A stretch of DNA of 63,503 nucleotides, filler included, from Octopus bimaculoides (lineage: Eukaryota): assembly GCF_001194135.2 (NCBI RefSeq). It is 5 parts of 5 records of this genome, joined end to end, with 100 filler letters (N's around TTAATTAATTAA, not from the genome) between each part and the next. Parts side by side here need not be neighbours in the genome. Positions count along the whole stretch, not along the records: positions 44,819 to 57,592 come from NC_068981.1; positions 57,693 to 61,539 come from NC_068983.1; 3 more parts are not named here. The stretch is one strand, 5' to 3'. Made by a program: the position numbers and the translations under genes. How positions within the stretch are numbered: the first letter of the stretch is position 1; each line of letters begins with the position of its first letter. Under the pieces are notes generated by a model. It was not told the DNA's origin, searched no databases, and saw only the letters and a list, made by a program, of their open reading frames with translations. Below are positions 56,871-63,503 of the stretch, one piece after another.

Positions 56871-57180
56871 AGGGTAAAAGAGTATACCATTGAAATTCTA
56901 AAGCTACAAGGTAAAGCATGATTAATTCAAACCAACGGGAATAAGTAAGCATTACTTTTGACAAAGAAATCTGAATGCTATGGAGTTAAACTAAACATTT
57001 TGCTCAATCTTTATTGAAGCATAAACTTATCAGTATTGGCAAACTTTAAAATTATTGACGTATATGCACACACGAGTAAGCACATAGATGCGAAACAAGG
57101 GGGAAAAAATAGTACTCGAATACCAAAGGTAGAGTAATATGCTTTTTTTTAATTATTGAAGCTGTAAAAACATCACAAAA

Positions 57181-57222
57181 AACTGTTACTCAGAGTTTCA
57201 CGCTCCCATTCATCAGACAGTT
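57181..57222 (-). ncRNA. Minimal type I hammerhead ribozyme, canonical core
   Basis: The minus strand reads aactgt CTGATGA atgggagcgt GAAAC tctga GTA acagtt: 6-bp stem I, short stem II, near-palindromic minimal stem III, GUA cleavage triplet. Confidence 0.85.
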
Positions 57223-57232
57223 GTGATCACAC

Positions 57233-57270
57233 CTGTCTGACAAACGGGTATGTGAAACTCTGAGTAACAG
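57233..57270 (+). ncRNA. Degenerate hammerhead ribozyme, head-to-head partner of 57181-57222
   Basis: ctgt CTGACAA acgggtatgt GAAAC tctga GTA acag; the core differs from CUGANGA at G8. Confidence 0.65.
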
Positions 57271-57456
57271 TTTTTTTGTGATGGTTTTACATTATATATG
57301 GAGTGACTGTGTGGTAAGTAGCTTGCTTACCAACCACATGGTTCTGGGTTCAGTCCCACTGCATGGCACCTTGGGCAAGTGTCTTCTACTATAGCCCCGG
57401 GCCGACCAAGGCCTTGTGAGTGGATTTGGTAGACGGAAACTGAGAAGAAGCCCGTC

Positions 57457-57495
<39 letters not shown>

Positions 57496-57692
57496 CATAA
57501 ATATATAGGGATTGACAGTAACCTGCTTCTCCAACATACTGAGAATTCAGAAATAGCAGTCAAAGAACTACTGATTTCAAAACTACAAATTANNNNNNNN
57601 NNNNNNNNNNNNNNNNNNNNNNNNNNNNNNNNNNNNTTAATTAATTAANNNNNNNNNNNNNNNNNNNNNNNNNNNNNNNNNNNNNNNNNNNN

Positions 57693-59690
57693 TGTGTGTG
57701 TGCGCGTGTGTGCGTGTGTGTGTGTGTTTGGCAACATGTCCATGTTTATACTATGTAACTTCGATCACGCCTCTTTCAATCTCATGTACTGTCTCTGCTT
57801 TTCTTTCAAACATTCAATTTTGGAGAGAAACGTTTGGTGAAATTTAGTTGCTTTGCTTTTCGGTATTGTGGATCGTCCCGTGCACATTTGTAAAAAGAAA
57901 AACTTTTGAATTTTCCGTCGCTGCATATTTCCAGATGCTTACTTAATGGAATCTTGCGTAATTCCTCTTTATCGGATATGTTACCATTAGATTCTTGCAT
58001 GTAGGCAGGGGGAACTATTTTGTTCACCAATGTAATTTTCTTTCCAGTTTGAGCAGGTAATGCAGTATATGAGGCTTTGTGTCTTGTTATATTGTCGTAT
58101 GTTTCACATTTATCTCCACGTTCTTTTACTAAAAATTCTCATTCATCCTCTGATACGGATTCTGCCATTGTGAGGAGTTTTTAAGATTATTCCCGTGGTG
58201 TCTGCTCTTCCGTAAGGTGTCTTTTTTTTCAATCGGGTTTTTCATTTTGGGGCTTTGTAGGAGTATAATTAATTAGATTTTATGGTGTGAAAGATGTTGG
58301 TTATTCGAGGACCGTGTGTGTTAACGAACGGAATCGTGTTTTAATTAACTTTTTCCTTAGTTTCCGTAGTTGGGTGATGTTCACTTTCATCGCCTTTTCA
58401 ATTCCCTCATTAATTAATCCTAAGGGGTATTTCTGGATTGCGAGGAAGCCTTTAACTCCGTTCATTGGACTTCATGTATAGTGGGGGTCAGTCACTATAG
58501 CACAGATGCATTTTGCCATACTGTATAGTATGTTTCTTTTGATGTGTGATGGATGGCAACTAGCAGAAACGTTAGCACGCCGGGCGAAATACTAAACGGT
58601 ATTTCGTCTGCAGTTATGTTCTGCGTTTAAGTTCCGCCGAGGTCGACTTTGCCATTCATCCTTTCGGGGTTGATGAATTAAGTACCAGTTTTGCACTGAG
58701 GTCGATGTAATCGAGTTAATTTCTTTGTCTGTCCTTGTTTGTCCCCTCTATGTTTAGCCCCTTGTGGGCAATAACGAAATAAGAGTAGAAATTTAAACAT
58801 TGGTGTGTGCCGGTATTTTTGTAAAATATCTCTGTTGTGACACTGGAGTTCTGTATTTTTGTGGATATCCAGGAATGGTAGTTCATTGCAACTGGATACT
58901 GTCATGAATTTGATTTATGGGTGAAGTGTGTTCGTTATATTGTTAGATCTTCATTCTATTTGTCGCTGAAGATGAAGCAATCATCAAGCAAGCGCTTCCA
59001 CTTTTTAATGATATTTTACTTGTACTCTCGATCAAAAGATTTTTCTCCTTCCTCATAAAGTGTTTCTTCCAAGTATCCCATAACTATGTTTGCATATGAG
59101 GGCACAAACCGTGTACCAATAGCCGTGCCCATTACCTTTTAAATCTGTCGAACGTTTTATTGTCGAATCTAAAGGTATTTTCTTATAGCAGTTGAAGCGT
59201 TCATTTAACTGTTCTCTATATTTCTCTACCCAGTGTTTCATTGCTTCTAGGCCTAAAATGTGAGGTATATTAGTATAGAGATTGGTGACATCAAACCTTG
59301 TGTGTATAGTATCTTCTGCAACAGTGGGAGGGATGTGTTGGATGAAATCTATGCCATCCCGTACGTAACTGGGTATTAAAGGGAACAAGGTTTTTAAGAG
59401 TATATCTAAAAAAATTACTTGGAACTACATTTCATCAAAAAATTCTCTCCAAAATTGAATGTCTGAAAGAAAAGCGGAGACAGTACATTTTGTAGGTGTC
59501 ATACTAATAATCTCTAATGCAAAATCCTGAAATTGAAAGAGGCGTGATCGAAGTTACATAGTATAAACATGGACATGTTCCCAAACACACAAACACACAT
59601 GCGCACACACACACGCACACACACATTCACGCACACACATACACACACGGACGCACATACGCACACACACACACGCACACACACACACAC
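57693..59690 (-). mobile_element. Penelope-like retroelement, 5'-truncated and decayed (RT + GIY-YIG-region fragments), with an inverted copy of its 3' end
   Basis: Minus-strand fragments: NFLDILLKTLFPLIPSYVRDGIDF, FDVTNLYTNIP, GTAIGTRFVPSYANIVMGYLEE, NELPFLDI, LNFYS/CHPSHIKRN, ENYIGE, RKIPLSKHLEICSDGKFK. Frameshifted and interrupted by a SINE. Confidence 0.88.
58556..58783 (+). mobile_element. SINE family C nested in the Penelope-like element
   Basis: The PLE frame LNFYS|CHPSHIKRN is split at this insertion. Confidence 0.87.
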
Positions 59691-59849
59691 ACACTTCATC
59701 AAGGAATTCTCCCCAAAGTTCAATGTTTGAAGGTAAAGTGAAGAATTTTCATTTTTTATTCCAAATGTGGCTCATCTCTACAAATGTTCATATAAATATA
59801 TATACATTTAGTAAATGGAGTAAAACGCATATGTTAACTGAATACTTTT

Positions 59850-59937
59850 ATTTCCAACATGCTTCGAAGATTACAAATTATACCTTCCATAGGAATAGGT
59901 GATGTTGATAAGAATGTAATCTTCTCTTCAGGGAAAT
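59850..59937 (-). ncRNA. Type I hammerhead ribozyme motif with one core substitution (A15.1 to G)
   Basis: The minus strand reads atttcc CTGAAGA gaagattaca [39-nt loop] tgtaatcttc GAAGC at GTT ggaaat, with a perfect 6-bp stem I and 10-bp stem II. Confidence 0.75.
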
Positions 59938-60231
59938 GCATGGGAACCAGCGTAAACGTAAGACATTTTAACCGAATATGAGAACTGTAGTTGGAGAAGG
60001 TTGAAATCTTTCAAACATACGTTGGAAATAGTAGTATTCAGTTAACATATGCGTTTTACTCCATTTACTAAATGTATATATACTCAAGTACCCAAAATAA
60101 CAAGGAGTTTCTACCTCATAAACAGGAGTTACACCAAAGTCATTTTGTGATCTTTGCTACCCTGGTATCTATTAATCAATTTATTTTGTCCGAGTTAATT
60201 ATTAACTAGGAGAAAATATATACATGTAATA

Positions 60232-60271
<40 letters not shown>

Positions 60272-61505
60272 GCGTGCGTGCGTGTATGTGTGTGGGTGTG
60301 TGTGTAGCATTGACATGTACTGAATTTACACAGAATGCCATGTGGTTTAACATACGCATTCTGTGCACAATGTGAATGAGTAATTTTAAACGCACTTCAT
60401 GGGCGTTTATTTACAAACATCTTCAAATGCTCTGCCTCAATACTGAAATTAATTAATATGCGGTGCTATGTCTTAATAAAAATTTATTCGTATGAATCAA
60501 AATAAAATTGACACCGGACATTCACGGAGGTTTTCGTTAGTAATTGAAAGTTATGCTCACTACCTTCGTGGAATGCATAACTTAACCAATGAAAAGATTT
60601 TACAGGCAAAATGGAACTTGTTACTTTCATCGTTTAGTTCACTGTTGTTCTTTATTCACACTGTGACAGGCAGTGATGATTATTCCCACAAATATGTACA
60701 TACATGTCTATTTATCGCATATATTAATTTCAAATTTTGGAACAAGGCCAGCAATTTCAACGTTTAGTCGATGTTGTCCTCAGTGCTCAACTGATACTCA
60801 TTTATTCGACCCCGAAAGAATAAAAATTTATGTCGACCACATCACAATCTGAACTCAGAACGCGAAGACAGAGACGAAGTACCGCAAAACATTTTGTACG
60901 GTGTGCTAATGATTCTGCCACCTCATCTCCTCATTCAGCACACATATTAAAAAGGTATACTGCTAGCCAATTTAGTAGCATTAATTATATGCATAACAAT
61001 ATAATTGCGTAATAAAAATAATTAAAATAAATAATGCATTTAACACCCAAGTGAAATACTTCTATGCAACAGAACGAATAAGAATATTTTACTGGTTAGT
61101 TTCATACGGAAATGAAATATCTGTACAAAGATCCCGAGTATCCCATAACTATTGAACTATTTATTGAATGATTTACCAGCAGACAATTGCACTTACACAA
61201 ACACACACACACATGCATACAGAGATTTATATATGAAGGTGCGTCTGTATATAAATATATTTATACATGCATATACATAAATGTATGCTTACACATATAT
61301 GTGTCTATATGTTTAGCTCACTTTCTCCATCGAATCAACGTTGCATGAATAGGTGCACAGTGTACCACGCGTCAAGTAACGAAGCGATTGTAGATCAATG
61401 TGATATGAAGAACAAAACAAATCAGCCGGTCTAAGAATCGGAACCACGTCGGAACAACGATCTCACGTCCGAGAGTGCAAATGTCTAAACACTAGGCCAT
61501 GCGCC

Positions 61506-61539
<34 letters not shown>

Positions 61540-61639
61540 NNNNNNNNNNNNNNNNNNNNNNNNNNNNNNNNNNNNNNNNNNNNTTAATTAATTAANNNNN
61601 NNNNNNNNNNNNNNNNNNNNNNNNNNNNNNNNNNNNNNN

Positions 61640-61674
<35 letters not shown>

Positions 61675-62111
61675 CACACATACACACATACATACATACA
61701 TAGATATCGCATTGTATTTCTTTTATTTATATGGTTCTGTTTTAGCTGTCTCTGAAAGACCATTAAAGTTGATTCTTTGATTGACACCACCATTGCTGCC
61801 TCCTAATTAATGTCTCCTGTCTGCTCCCTAGCAATCTCCATCTAAACCCTTACCCATTCTCAACTAAGAAACCCATCGAATCAATTGCAACTCCCTGCAG
61901 AATATATATATATATATTCACCTCCATAAATCATTACAGTCTTCAAAGTAAATCTCTCGTGTTTAATCCAATTTCTCCATTTTGTTTTGTTGAAATAGAA
62001 CTTTGTGTATAGAAACCCAAGACAGAACCATATATTTACAGTTTCAATAAGCTGTACATCTAGTGAAACTTTGAAATCATGATCTGTCTACTTATCTATT
62101 TATCTATCTAT

Positions 62112-62149
<38 letters not shown>

Positions 62150-62159
62150 ATCTATCATC

Positions 62160-63128
62160 ATCATCATCGTCGTTTAACGTCCGCTTTCCATGCTGGCATG
62201 GGTTGGACGGTTTAACTGAGAATTGGTGAACCAGAGACTGCACCAGGCTCCATTCTGATCTGGCAAAGTTTCTACAGCTGGATGCCCTTCCTAATTCCAA
62301 TCACTCCGAGAGTGTAGTGGGTGCTTTTACGTGGCACCGGCACGAGGGCCAGTCAGCCGGTACTGGCAACGGCCAGGCACGAAATGGTGTATTTTACGTG
62401 CCACCTGCACAAGGGCCAGTCGAGGGGCACTGGTAACGATCTCGCTTGGATATCTTACTGGCAAAGGCCACGCTCGAAATGGTGTATTATGTGTCACCTG
62501 CACAGGAGCCAGTCCATCGGTACTGGCAACAATCTCGCTCAAATGTCTTTTCACGATCAATCTGGTGCTATTTACGTGCCACCAGCACGGAAGCCAGACA
62601 GTTGCTCTGGCAACGATCACGCTCGGACGGTGCTCTTAGTGCTCCACTGGTACAAGTGCCATCATGATTTCACTTTCGCTTGCCTCAAAAGGTCTTCGCA
62701 AGCTGAGTTTAGTGTCCAATAAAGGAATGTCACGTGTAAGTGGGCTGGCTACACCCCTGGCAAGGGCCTTGGATTTTGGTCTCACTTGGCCTGCCGAGTC
62801 TTCTCACGCACAGCATATTTCCAAAGGTCACGGTCACAAGTCATTGCCTCGGTGAGGCCTAATGTTCAGAGGTTGTGCTTCACCACCACATCCCAGGTCT
62901 TCCTAAGCCTGCCTCTTCCACGGGTTCCCTCAACCGCTAGGGTGTGGCACTTTTTCATGCAGCTATCCTCATCCATTCTCACCACATGTCTATTGCCAGT
63001 GCAATTATCTCTCTTGCACACCACAACTAATGCTTCTTATGTTCAACTTTTCTCTTAAGATACTTATGCTCTGTCGGGGATGCACACTGACATTACTCAT
63101 CCATCGGAGCATACTGGCTTCGTTTCCT
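62160..63128 (-). mobile_element. RTE-clade LINE 3' end (ORF C-terminus, repeat-containing 3' UTR, (GAT)n tail)
   Basis: The minus strand encodes RNEASMLRWMSNV...HVVRMDEDSCMKKC...EGTRGRGRLRKTW...DRDLWKYAVREKTRQAK* (stop 62782-62784). A UTR follows, ending in aaacgacgatgatgatg. Confidence 0.85.
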
Positions 63129-63503
63129 GCGAGCTTATCTATCTATTCTGCTTATGATTGTAAAGTCATGAGCTCAATTCCCAGCGATGCAATGCGTCCT
63201 TAAGCAAACACTTTATTTCACATTACTTCAGTTCAATCAGCCAACAAAAATGATTAGCACCATTTTTTTCAAAGTGGCCAACCATATCCCATCCTGTGTG
63301 TCACAGTGAATCTCCCTGAGAACTACGTTAAGGGTACACATGTCTGTGGAATGCTCAGCCACTTGCATGTTTATTTCATAAACAGGCTGTTCTGCTGATT
63401 GTATCAACTGGAACCCTCAATGTCATAACTAACGGAGTGCCAGTTAGGTATATATATATACATATATGTATGTATATGTATGTATATATATATGTATGTA
63501 TGT

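Follow-up and report, generated by a model that had tools for sequence, protein, structure and literature searches.

Fold-back hammerhead units beside a truncated Penelope-like element in the octopus genome are probably decayed insertions by Penelope machinery

Three inverted-repeat structures lie side by side at 57100-60082 of the stretch of Octopus bimaculoides DNA analysed here (the window, 63,503 nucleotides): a short fold-back with a hammerhead motif (unit 1), a truncated Penelope-like element and another short fold-back (unit 2). We consider it probable that these are three separate, old and decayed insertions by Penelope machinery, each comprising the 3′ end of the element twice over, as a long copy and as a shorter one in mirror orientation. 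Penelope-like elements have their hammerhead motif at this 3′ end. We observed three inverted pairs, a broken open reading frame (ORF) with reverse transcriptase (RT) and GIY-YIG domains, a one-sided tail and a junction palindrome in unit 1, varied junctions in its family and damage in three of the four hammerhead arms. The inverted pairs, the tail, the palindrome and the varied junctions fit the second of two options in an earlier note on this DNA, namely that the fold-backs are remnants of inverted pseudo-LTR junctions.

Hammerhead motifs and their surroundings

The core required of every arm was C3 U4 G5 A6 N7 G8 A9, G12 A13 A14 A15.1 and U16.1 H17, together with stems I and II. One of the four arms carries this minimal type I core; the other three have G8A, have A15.1G or lack the first half. 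A descriptor that permits at most one core mismatch gave three matches in the whole window, all within units 1 and 2, compared with a mean of 0.02 in 100 shuffles of 57100-60082, none of which reached three. Motifs were also scored with a custom model built from eight unrelated Penelope hammerheads. The Rfam hammerhead families, to which the earlier note had looked for confirmation, gave no match at E ≤ 10 over 54000-63503 or in either unit alone; the only Rfam matches on the units were sub-threshold ones of microRNA-type hairpins.

Units 1 and 2 share no significant likeness (280 of 300 shuffles equal it), in keeping with the earlier description of them as unrelated in sequence. The unsized join marked at 57593 is also present (57593-57692; 44 N, 12 letters and 44 N) and is one of four such joins in a window with 18 N runs. 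The two units had further been described as bracketing the Penelope element, which for unit 1 looks like chance neighbourhood. Between unit 1 and the join lie a SINE-like dispersed repeat (57300-57443, plus strand; 94% to 56479-56622, with similar sequence at 49140-49295 and 52070-52230), a TA run and 100 nt, so that, even with a correct join, unit 1 and the element would not be direct neighbours. Recurrence and a microsatellite tail suggest the SINE label. A likeness of the 100 nt left of the join to unit 2 was rejected, as 85 and 71 of 300 shuffles equal it.

Unit 1 and its family

The inverted repeat of unit 1 (57163-57291) has 8 substitutions and 1 gap between its arms over 65 columns. The whole unit folds at -80/-74 kcal/mol, which none of 200 shuffles equalled; taken singly, the arms fold no better than shuffles (183 and 98 of 200 as good). 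The long arm (57070-57226, minus strand) comprises the hammerhead and then ~115 nt of 3′ sequence, ~90 nt of it beyond the mirror arm; it belongs to a high-copy family, in which the depth profile and the longest pieces end at 57061-57078. Its motif (57222-57181, minus strand) has an intact consensus core with no core mismatch by descriptor, a 6-bp stem I, a 3-bp stem II, a 7-nt self-complementary helix III and a predicted cut between 57187 and 57186, and is the top match to the custom model in the window (21.1 bits, E 0.0013). Sequence and fold place the head-to-head point at a perfect 10-nt palindrome (57222-57231). The short arm (57227-57291, plus strand) contains a hammerhead remnant (57233-57270; custom model 11.3 bits, E 1) with G8A at 57242 (CpG to CpA), where the family majority is G (72% of depth in run X1). 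Of the hammerhead pair that the earlier note read here, the inverted repeat is real but only the minus-strand core is intact. The arms of both units are head to head as claimed, but unit 1 is asymmetric, its left arm continuing to ~57070. No target-site duplication was seen by eye at unit 1.

We mapped the family in public contigs from two DNA runs with the same organism label and one of a second organism. Unit 1 is one copy of a thousands-copy family, with a ~90-nt tail on one side only and a palindrome at the junction. Summed depth over the long arm, which is no copy number, is ~7,000-15,000 times the single-copy flank in X1; the bin that holds the junction reaches ~260 times, and position 57232 only 69 times, this flank. 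The listing gives 15 of the 82 joints; 12 of them read as head-to-head junctions with different breakpoints, many of the left ones being approximate in an indel-rich stretch, and none of the 15 is a head-to-tail joint. Each of these 12 occurs in one or two contigs at a depth of 16-105 (single copy, 36.8 in X1), and the second organism shares three of them. No piece among the 24 of 16,661 listed spans the unit 1 junction; short-word contigs can break at palindromes. Head-to-head arms, a junction palindrome, a one-sided tail and copy-to-copy variation of the junction are all present for unit 1 and its family.

In all three DNA runs, the longest pieces end at 57222-57229 and pass into unlike AT-rich letters (agreement 0.5). 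These loose ends beyond the hammerhead are heterogeneous (76-98 contigs per run) and have a median of ~40 nt, in contigs that are themselves short. The family majority has C in place of U at core position 4; C accounts for 64-77% of depth at 57215 across the three DNA runs. Most alterations of the cores are CpG decay, with CpG transitions at six of the eight positions where the two cores and their stems II depart from the family majority. At 57165/57289 the two arms agree on a letter other than the one read by 87% of depth at 57165, which points to a single template lineage.

BLAST of the two units against 91 related Penelope loci gave no significant match (best E of both units, 0.25 and 0.32). 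Pattern scans returned 0 and 0 matches to the unit 1 motifs in viral contigs and 0 to the unit 2 tail in metagenome contigs. In one RNA run, of which ~6% was read, neither starts nor ends of reads piled up on unit 1, and the joints listed included no circular back-joint in a library type unsuited to circles. Some changes are commoner in RNA than in DNA (57097, 57104, 57124 and 57214); RNA editing was rejected because both mate directions are alike and one expressed copy elsewhere would explain the changes. Among the publications listed in our literature searches, none describes an octopus hammerhead family or a MITE-shaped Penelope ribozyme; the family may already be catalogued in repeat databases such as Repbase or Dfam.

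The middle element and its relatives

The middle element (57693-59412, minus strand) is 5′-truncated and frameshifted (tblastn E 1e-46 to 1e-20; 78% to relative P0001). Its truncated ORF (59412-57809, minus strand) begins mid-RT at 59412 and has the layout of a Penelope-type RT followed by a GIY-YIG endonuclease at the C terminus: RT motifs (59412-58782), thumb and linker, GIY-YIG (58085-57809) and then a 3′ UTR that runs into CA repeats. Full-length relatives, which carry PF00078 and PF01541, align with it colinearly by tblastn over residues ~230-740; a Pfam scan of four ORF fragments of the element itself gave nothing at the cut-off. A later dispersed-repeat insertion (58556-58784; copies at 46611, 8020, 27384 and others) splits the ORF, which picks up again beyond it (P0090 residue 479). 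Head to head with the element at ~59420 is an inverted copy of its own end (59423-59625 as the inverted repeat, 59423-59690 as the annotated part, plus strand) with ORF end, UTR and CA repeats, differing from the minus copy by 7/66 and 2/55 substitutions and a 40-nt indel. A 5′ truncation with an adjoining inverted copy of the 3′ end is thus present, and the truncated element with its inverted end that had been noted at 57693-59690 is borne out. A second, more diverged Penelope ORF end follows (59691-59760, plus strand; 76% to 59427-59494, 0 of 300 shuffles as good) and may be either another family or an old tandem copy.

Neither the descriptor nor the custom model found a hammerhead in the visible UTR of the element. 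One UTR copy enters the N join, and the other enters CA repeats and another ORF end. Among relatives with at least 300 nt past the ORF, 7 of 11 loci have a sense hammerhead 83-447 nt beyond the ORF end; all seven motifs contain a 4-nt helix III insert, and five have a TA run 62-115 nt after GAAA. Between RT and endonuclease, a CX2-5CxxC linker, described for the Neptune and Nematis clades, occurs in 94 of 97 full-length relatives; the element's own copy aligns there in decayed form. The 7-nt helix III of unit 1 is unlike that of this neighbouring clade.

Unit 2

The arms of unit 2 (59797-59876 and 60001-60082) differ by 6 substitutions and 2 gap columns in 82, with no difference in the outer 50 columns. 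The long arm (59797 to an inner end at probably ~59995, minus strand) has a hammerhead-like motif and a tail ending in a TA run. The motif (59937-59850, minus strand) has one core mismatch by descriptor, A15.1G (GAAG for GAAA), a 59-nt stem II and loop (a 10-bp stem II and a 39-nt loop) and a 4-nt palindromic helix III. The custom model matches only its first core half (10.9 bits, E 1.4 window-wide, not significant). The short arm (60001-60082, plus strand) is 5′-truncated inside stem II and is not a hammerhead because the first core half is absent; the custom model has no plus-strand match in this arm. Likeness between the arms ends near 60001, upstream of which there is no alignment (290 of 300 shuffles do as well). 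We discarded a degenerate plus-strand core near 59972, which lacks a proper stem I, bears no likeness to the opposite arm and would require three core positions to be changed. Of the second hammerhead unit that the earlier note placed at 59797-60082, the inverted repeat stands, but its minus-strand motif reads GAAG for GAAA and its plus arm is no hammerhead.

Taken singly, the arms of unit 2 fold weakly better than shuffles (10 and 4 of 200 as good). At both ends stands a self-complementary TA run, which is likewise present within the relatives' pseudo-LTRs. The long arm resembles the relatives' hammerheads in its 4-nt palindrome and in its TA run at +61, whereas its 59-nt stem II and loop compares with 8-16 nt in the relatives, and the middle element's UTR has no significant likeness to the arms of unit 2 (46 and 263 of 300 shuffles as good). 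A link between unit 2 and the clade of the neighbouring element is possible, though with weak support.

In both whole fold-backs the predicted pair probability of stem I is 0.0000: a transcript through either unit forms one long hairpin and has no ribozyme stem I left. The suggestion that a transcript of either strand would contain a hammerhead thus fails, with three of four arms damaged or incomplete and stem I pairing lost to the hairpin. With its copies in opposite orientations, and read-through RNA that would fold into a long duplex, neither pair would function as a dimeric ribozyme.

Discussion

Published work on other elements suggests how such insertions could arise. The endonuclease would nick both strands of an AT-rich target, and reverse transcription from both nicks would start inside the RNA, downstream of the hammerhead. 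Two 5′-truncated cDNAs would then grow inwards and be joined at short complementary ends, and different start sites would leave a one-sided tail. If both cDNAs stopped early, the result would be a short hairpin in which one arm or both hold a hammerhead (units 1 and 2); if one reached into the ORF, it would give the middle element. CpG decay would have altered the cores afterwards. Set against this explanation, the unit 1 family is tied to no Penelope ORF and has heterogeneous loose ends, its tail is ~90 nt compared with the published 30-40 nt, the stem II and loop of unit 2 exceeds that of the relatives and its custom-model score is not significant. No target-site duplication was found for the insertions.

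For Penelope-like elements, the literature already describes ends that lie head to head, tails on one side only, palindromes at junctions and pairs of hammerheads on opposite strands. The published insertion-unit anatomy of endonuclease-bearing elements (PMC8557442, PMC3846280) includes 5′ truncation, an inverted 5′-truncated copy adjoining the 5′ end, a one-end tail, a head-to-head junction palindrome and a TA run in the pseudo-LTR, all as seen here. Unlike those elements, units 1 and 2 have no ORF sequence, and the unit 1 tail and the lack of a visible target-site duplication also differ (PMC8557442, PMC3846280). Metazoan Penelope minimal type I hammerheads number thousands of copies, mostly single, with dual motifs ~100-700 bp apart on opposite strands and most motifs ascribed to truncated elements (PMC4209133). 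They share a short palindromic helix III with the units here, whereas the unit 1 family has C rather than U at core position 4 and unit 2 has a much longer stem II and loop. For Poseidon of the green anole, both strands were cut and extended from internal RT starts in vitro; RT starts downstream of the hammerhead define the tail, and cleavage is not needed for insertion (PMC11167929). No RNA-seq ends at the cut site are reported for Poseidon, as in our one partly read RNA run; its hammerhead overlaps the ORF start (PMC11167929), whereas the relatives here carry the CX2-5CxxC linker. Non-LTR retrozymes of animals resemble the units in being non-coding, pseudo-LTR-derived, type I hammerhead sequences with solo monomers, but are defined by head-to-tail tandem units (bioRxiv 10.64898/2026.07.22.740005); the units here are head to head, and no tandem dimer is possible.

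The unit 1 arm might instead be a ~155-nt non-autonomous family, SINE-like or a retrozyme monomer, with a fixed start just before the hammerhead, moved in trans by Penelope RT and sometimes folded back. We regard this as possible but doubtful, and it is compatible with the insertion mechanism above. The thousands-fold depth over a short span, the shared end of the longest pieces before unlike AT-rich letters in all three DNA runs, the lack of likeness to the 91 Penelope loci and the described solo monomers of animal retrozymes (bioRxiv 10.64898/2026.07.22.740005) favour it. However, the contigs are short, and the same appearance would be expected if several subfamilies had diverged UTRs upstream; helix III is of the minimal palindromic type of pseudo-LTRs, and no head-to-tail joint is among those listed. 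Unit 2, the second ORF end and the middle element could also be one compound tandem or inverted insertion of a single clade, with unit 2 as its own pseudo-LTR. The three parts are contiguous without a gap, helix III and the TA spacing of unit 2 resemble the clade's pseudo-LTRs, and the element's visible UTR yielded no hammerhead. This we judge unlikely, given that the UTR and the unit 2 arms are not significantly alike, that the second ORF end and the long arm of unit 2 face each other tail to tail and that this ORF end is only 76% like the first.

MITEs are short, non-coding elements with terminal inverted arms. The units share these properties, and long near-perfect outer arms and TA at both ends of unit 2 might suggest MITE-shaped elements, each mobile as an entire hairpin and bearing ribozymes on both strands, which was the other option of the earlier note. 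For unit 1 this is a poor fit and overall very improbable: unit 1 is asymmetric, its junction is covered at a small fraction of the depth of its arms, and the listed junctions of its family are all different and of roughly single-copy depth, evidence against the amplification of an entire MITE-like unit. Rather than many copies uniform in ends and interior, the unit 1 family has varying junctions and arm lengths, and the arms would be RNA 3′ ends rather than transposase-binding repeats. Three of four cores are damaged or absent, and the hairpin blocks the ribozyme fold. Least credible of all is an origin of the hairpins as assembly artefacts, or by later inverted duplication without any connection to retrotransposition. 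The assembly is gappy, and no listed piece crosses the unit 1 junction, but arms that are 7-12% different in a CpG-decay pattern are not expected of an assembly artefact, and similar junctions turn up again in independent runs and in a second organism.

We therefore prefer three Penelope insertions, a pattern already published for these elements, of which this locus is a tidy example that matters little as found. It does advise caution, as Penelope insertion scars mimic MITEs, microRNA hairpins and two-strand ribozymes. A 'perfect' hammerhead core here can be a product of CpG decay or be lost to it, and counting motifs in genomic copies is therefore misleading. More tentatively, unit 1 may represent a free-standing, thousands-copy family of ~155 nt in an octopus-type genome, beginning just ahead of a U4C-variant hammerhead and mobilised by Penelope machinery, with numerous independent fold-back junctions, and outer arms that match more closely than inner ones, recording the priming of the second arm. 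One published account prefers self-priming on an antisense template (PMC3846280). If the family is free-standing, the junctions would provide abundant natural data on how Penelope inverted ends form, and could decide between two-nick priming and self-priming.

Inverted pairs and the Penelope-like element

The window is high in AT, has many gaps and is rich in microsatellites and dispersed repeats. Three inverted pairs are present where an earlier note had placed them: unit 1 (57163-57291), the two ends of a truncated Penelope-like element (57693-57849 with 59423-59625) and unit 2 (59797-59876 with 60001-60082). Overall, these structures are real, were partly mis-described in that note and are ordinary. 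Elsewhere, a 170-nt AT-rich, MITE-like element with ~45-nt terminal inverted repeats adjoins an N gap (48225-48395) and has a first-half core motif without a full hammerhead; a diverged tandem array of five units, 65-93 nt each, occupies 62318-62662, and similar sequence lies near 44440-44520.

The best protein match of the Penelope-like element (78% identity) is named an Octopus bimaculoides protein by its source, which suggests an octopus-type genome, and 771 of 8,000 scored proteins are related to the element at E<=1e-30. Full-length relatives, many of which have PF00078 and PF01541, align colinearly with its minus strand; the alignment starts in the middle of the RT (59412) and reaches the C terminus at 57809. 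The ORF is disrupted by stops and frameshifts, and a dispersed repeat is inserted at 58556-58784. The inverted copy of the element's end begins at 59423, right at the truncation point, and differs from the minus copy by 7/66 and 2/55 substitutions and a 40-nt indel. Because CA repeats read outward on either side, they are likely part of the element's own UTR. A second Penelope ORF end (59691-59760) is 76% similar to the first, and its starting codon is nearly that of the inverted copy at 59423. No hammerhead belonging to this second end was found. The stretch 60118-60148 faintly resembles the 3' half of the hammerhead of one related locus, L086 (E 0.14).

Among 91 related loci, 30 have a strict-descriptor hammerhead match, a few of them doubtful. 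We examined 14 of the closest in detail; of the 11 that extend at least 300 nt past the ORF, 7 have a hammerhead in sense orientation that lies 83-447 nt beyond the end of the ORF and bears a 4-nt insert in helix III. In 5 of the 7, GAAA is followed by a TA run at a distance of 62-115 nt. A palindrome of 4 nt and, at +61, a TA run are likewise present in the long arm of unit 2. The resemblance is one of design only, and direct sequence likeness of unit 2 to the 91 loci is not significant. In several related loci, coding-looking sequence starts 100-200 nt past the pseudo-LTR (L001:3646-5354, L009:3050-4115 and L004:3260-3626), which suggests the upstream ORF of a next tandem copy. Penelope-like RT and GIY-YIG genes (loci L081-L091; proteins P0004, P0012, P0020, P0070 and P0090) also occur on mostly short contigs of bacterial genome bins, including bins of mollusc symbionts, and are likely host DNA within the bins.

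Hammerhead motifs and predicted folds

Across the whole window, a type I hammerhead descriptor allowing at most one core mismatch matched three motifs, each inside unit 1 or unit 2; 100 dinucleotide shuffles of 57100-60082 gave a mean of 0.02 matches (one match in two shuffles, three in none). Both units had been described as head-to-head hammerhead pairs, yet the only full core is the minus-strand motif of unit 1 (57222-57181). Its plus-strand partner (57233-57270) is a remnant with A at the G8 position, and the minus-strand motif of unit 2 (59937-59850) has G at the A15.1 position and a stem II/loop of 59 nt. In unit 2, the plus arm lacks the first core half; it resembles the minus arm only from ~60001 onward, with no likeness upstream (290/300 shuffles as good). 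The consensus core, with its C3-G8 pair, has been described, as have losses of at least 10-fold in activity from changes at 15.1/16.1 (PMC3088659). G8C abolishes cleavage (PMC11167929), and G8A would be expected to do the same.

An Rfam search, which the earlier note had proposed, gave no hammerhead match. A custom model derived from 8 hammerheads in related Penelope loci (90% of cells paired; 0/500 shuffles as high) placed the unit 1 minus motif at the top of 22 matches (21.1 bits, E 0.0013). Scores were 11.3 bits (E 1) for unit 1 plus and 10.9 bits (E 1.4, first core half only) for unit 2 minus, with no match on the unit 2 plus arm. Nor do the folds favour the proposal that a transcript of either strand would contain a hammerhead: RNA across either whole unit is predicted to fold into a single long hairpin at -80 to -119 kcal/mol, in which the pair probability of stem I is 0.0000, versus 0.01-0.04 in a single arm.

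The unit 1 family in DNA and RNA

We compared 56880-57310 with public data (likeness 80) in DNA runs X1 and X2, which share one organism label, X14, which has a second, and the raw RNA run X21. The family covers ~57070-57229, and the left-arm tail is therefore ~90 nt longer than the right. Relative to the X1 unique-flank depth of 36.8, summed depth reaches ~7,000x in the hammerhead 3' bin and ~15,000x at the tail peak, as against ~260x in the junction bin and ~69x at 57232, both including overhang from single arms. We read this as thousands of copies, although summed depth is no copy number. Matching contigs number 6,027, 5,641 and 4,740 per DNA run, counts that include the unrelated repeat 56888-56985. 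That stretch is part of another very high-copy repeat. Because its loose ends match the sequence around 56445-56470, this other repeat was apparently interrupted by insertion of the SINE-like repeats at 56479-56885.

Among 15 of 82 joints, 12 read as head-to-head junctions at differing places (1-2 contigs each, depth 16-105), three of them also present in X14; the other three were left out as ordinary copies mapped to the mirror arm. A further 12 of 25 rows with intervening letters gave 9 different head-to-head junctions, joined through 1-38 filler letters. The stretch around 57137-57152 is rich in indels, and breakpoints placed there are approximate. Loose ends beyond 57222 are heterogeneous (agreement ~0.5), and none of 24 of the 16,661 contig pieces crosses unit 1's own junction.

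At core position 4, the majority letter of the family is C (77, 75 and 64% of depth at 57215 in the three DNA runs; 56-63% at 57238). By majority letter, the family is thus a high-copy U4C-variant hammerhead, a change that lowers activity (PMC3088659). The majority letters also include CpGs at N7-G8 as well as within stem II, and CpG transitions make up 6 of the 8 departures of the unit 1 arms from them (57208, 57212, 57215, 57238, 57242 and 57251). The U4 common to both arms may come from a minority template instead of decay.

In ~6% of X21, 2,349 reads match the stretch, 4 at >=99% identity and 1,957 below 90%. The same portion has no reads in unique bins 57015-57059 and no pile-up of read starts or ends. 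One fold-back junction from elsewhere is represented by 10 reads. Letters at 57097, 57104, 57124 and 57214 are far commoner in the RNA (~42-56%) than in DNA contigs (1-7%), likely reflecting one highly expressed copy elsewhere; editing could still be the source at the two A>G sites.

Origin of the inverted insertions

The anatomy, decay and junction variety of the insertions can be observed directly. They could have arisen if both target strands were nicked and priming were internal; two inward-growing truncated copies would result and then join at short complementary ends. Two-strand nicking and internal priming have been demonstrated in vitro for an anole element (PMC11167929). Alternatively, self-priming on an antisense template has been argued from junction palindromes (PMC3846280). 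Our data do not distinguish between these routes. Outer parts of the arms are more alike than inner parts in all three segments compared (57163-57291; 59797-60082; 57730-57849 with 59423-59582), with a split set after inspection of the data: differences are 0/50 outer versus 6/30 inner in unit 2 (Fisher 0.002) and 1/40 versus 7/24 in unit 1 (Fisher 0.003; 0.14 without CpG sites), and Fisher is 0.18 for the Penelope-like element. CpG decay accounts for this in unit 1, but not clearly in unit 2.

An adjoining inverted 5'-truncated copy, a one-sided tail and microsatellite bias are reported as typical of Penelope-like insertions (PMC8557442), inverted pseudo-LTRs are among published curation features (PMC8969392), and dual minimal hammerheads ~100-700 bp apart on opposite strands have been described (PMC4209133). 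Retrozymes are defined by tandem units, with solo monomers noted (bioRxiv 10.64898/2026.07.22.740005). No description of the octopus unit 1 family appeared in the literature listings searched. Both units and the Penelope-like element are probably further examples of an insertion pattern already on record, and the unit 1 family may itself be a non-autonomous element that stands alone.
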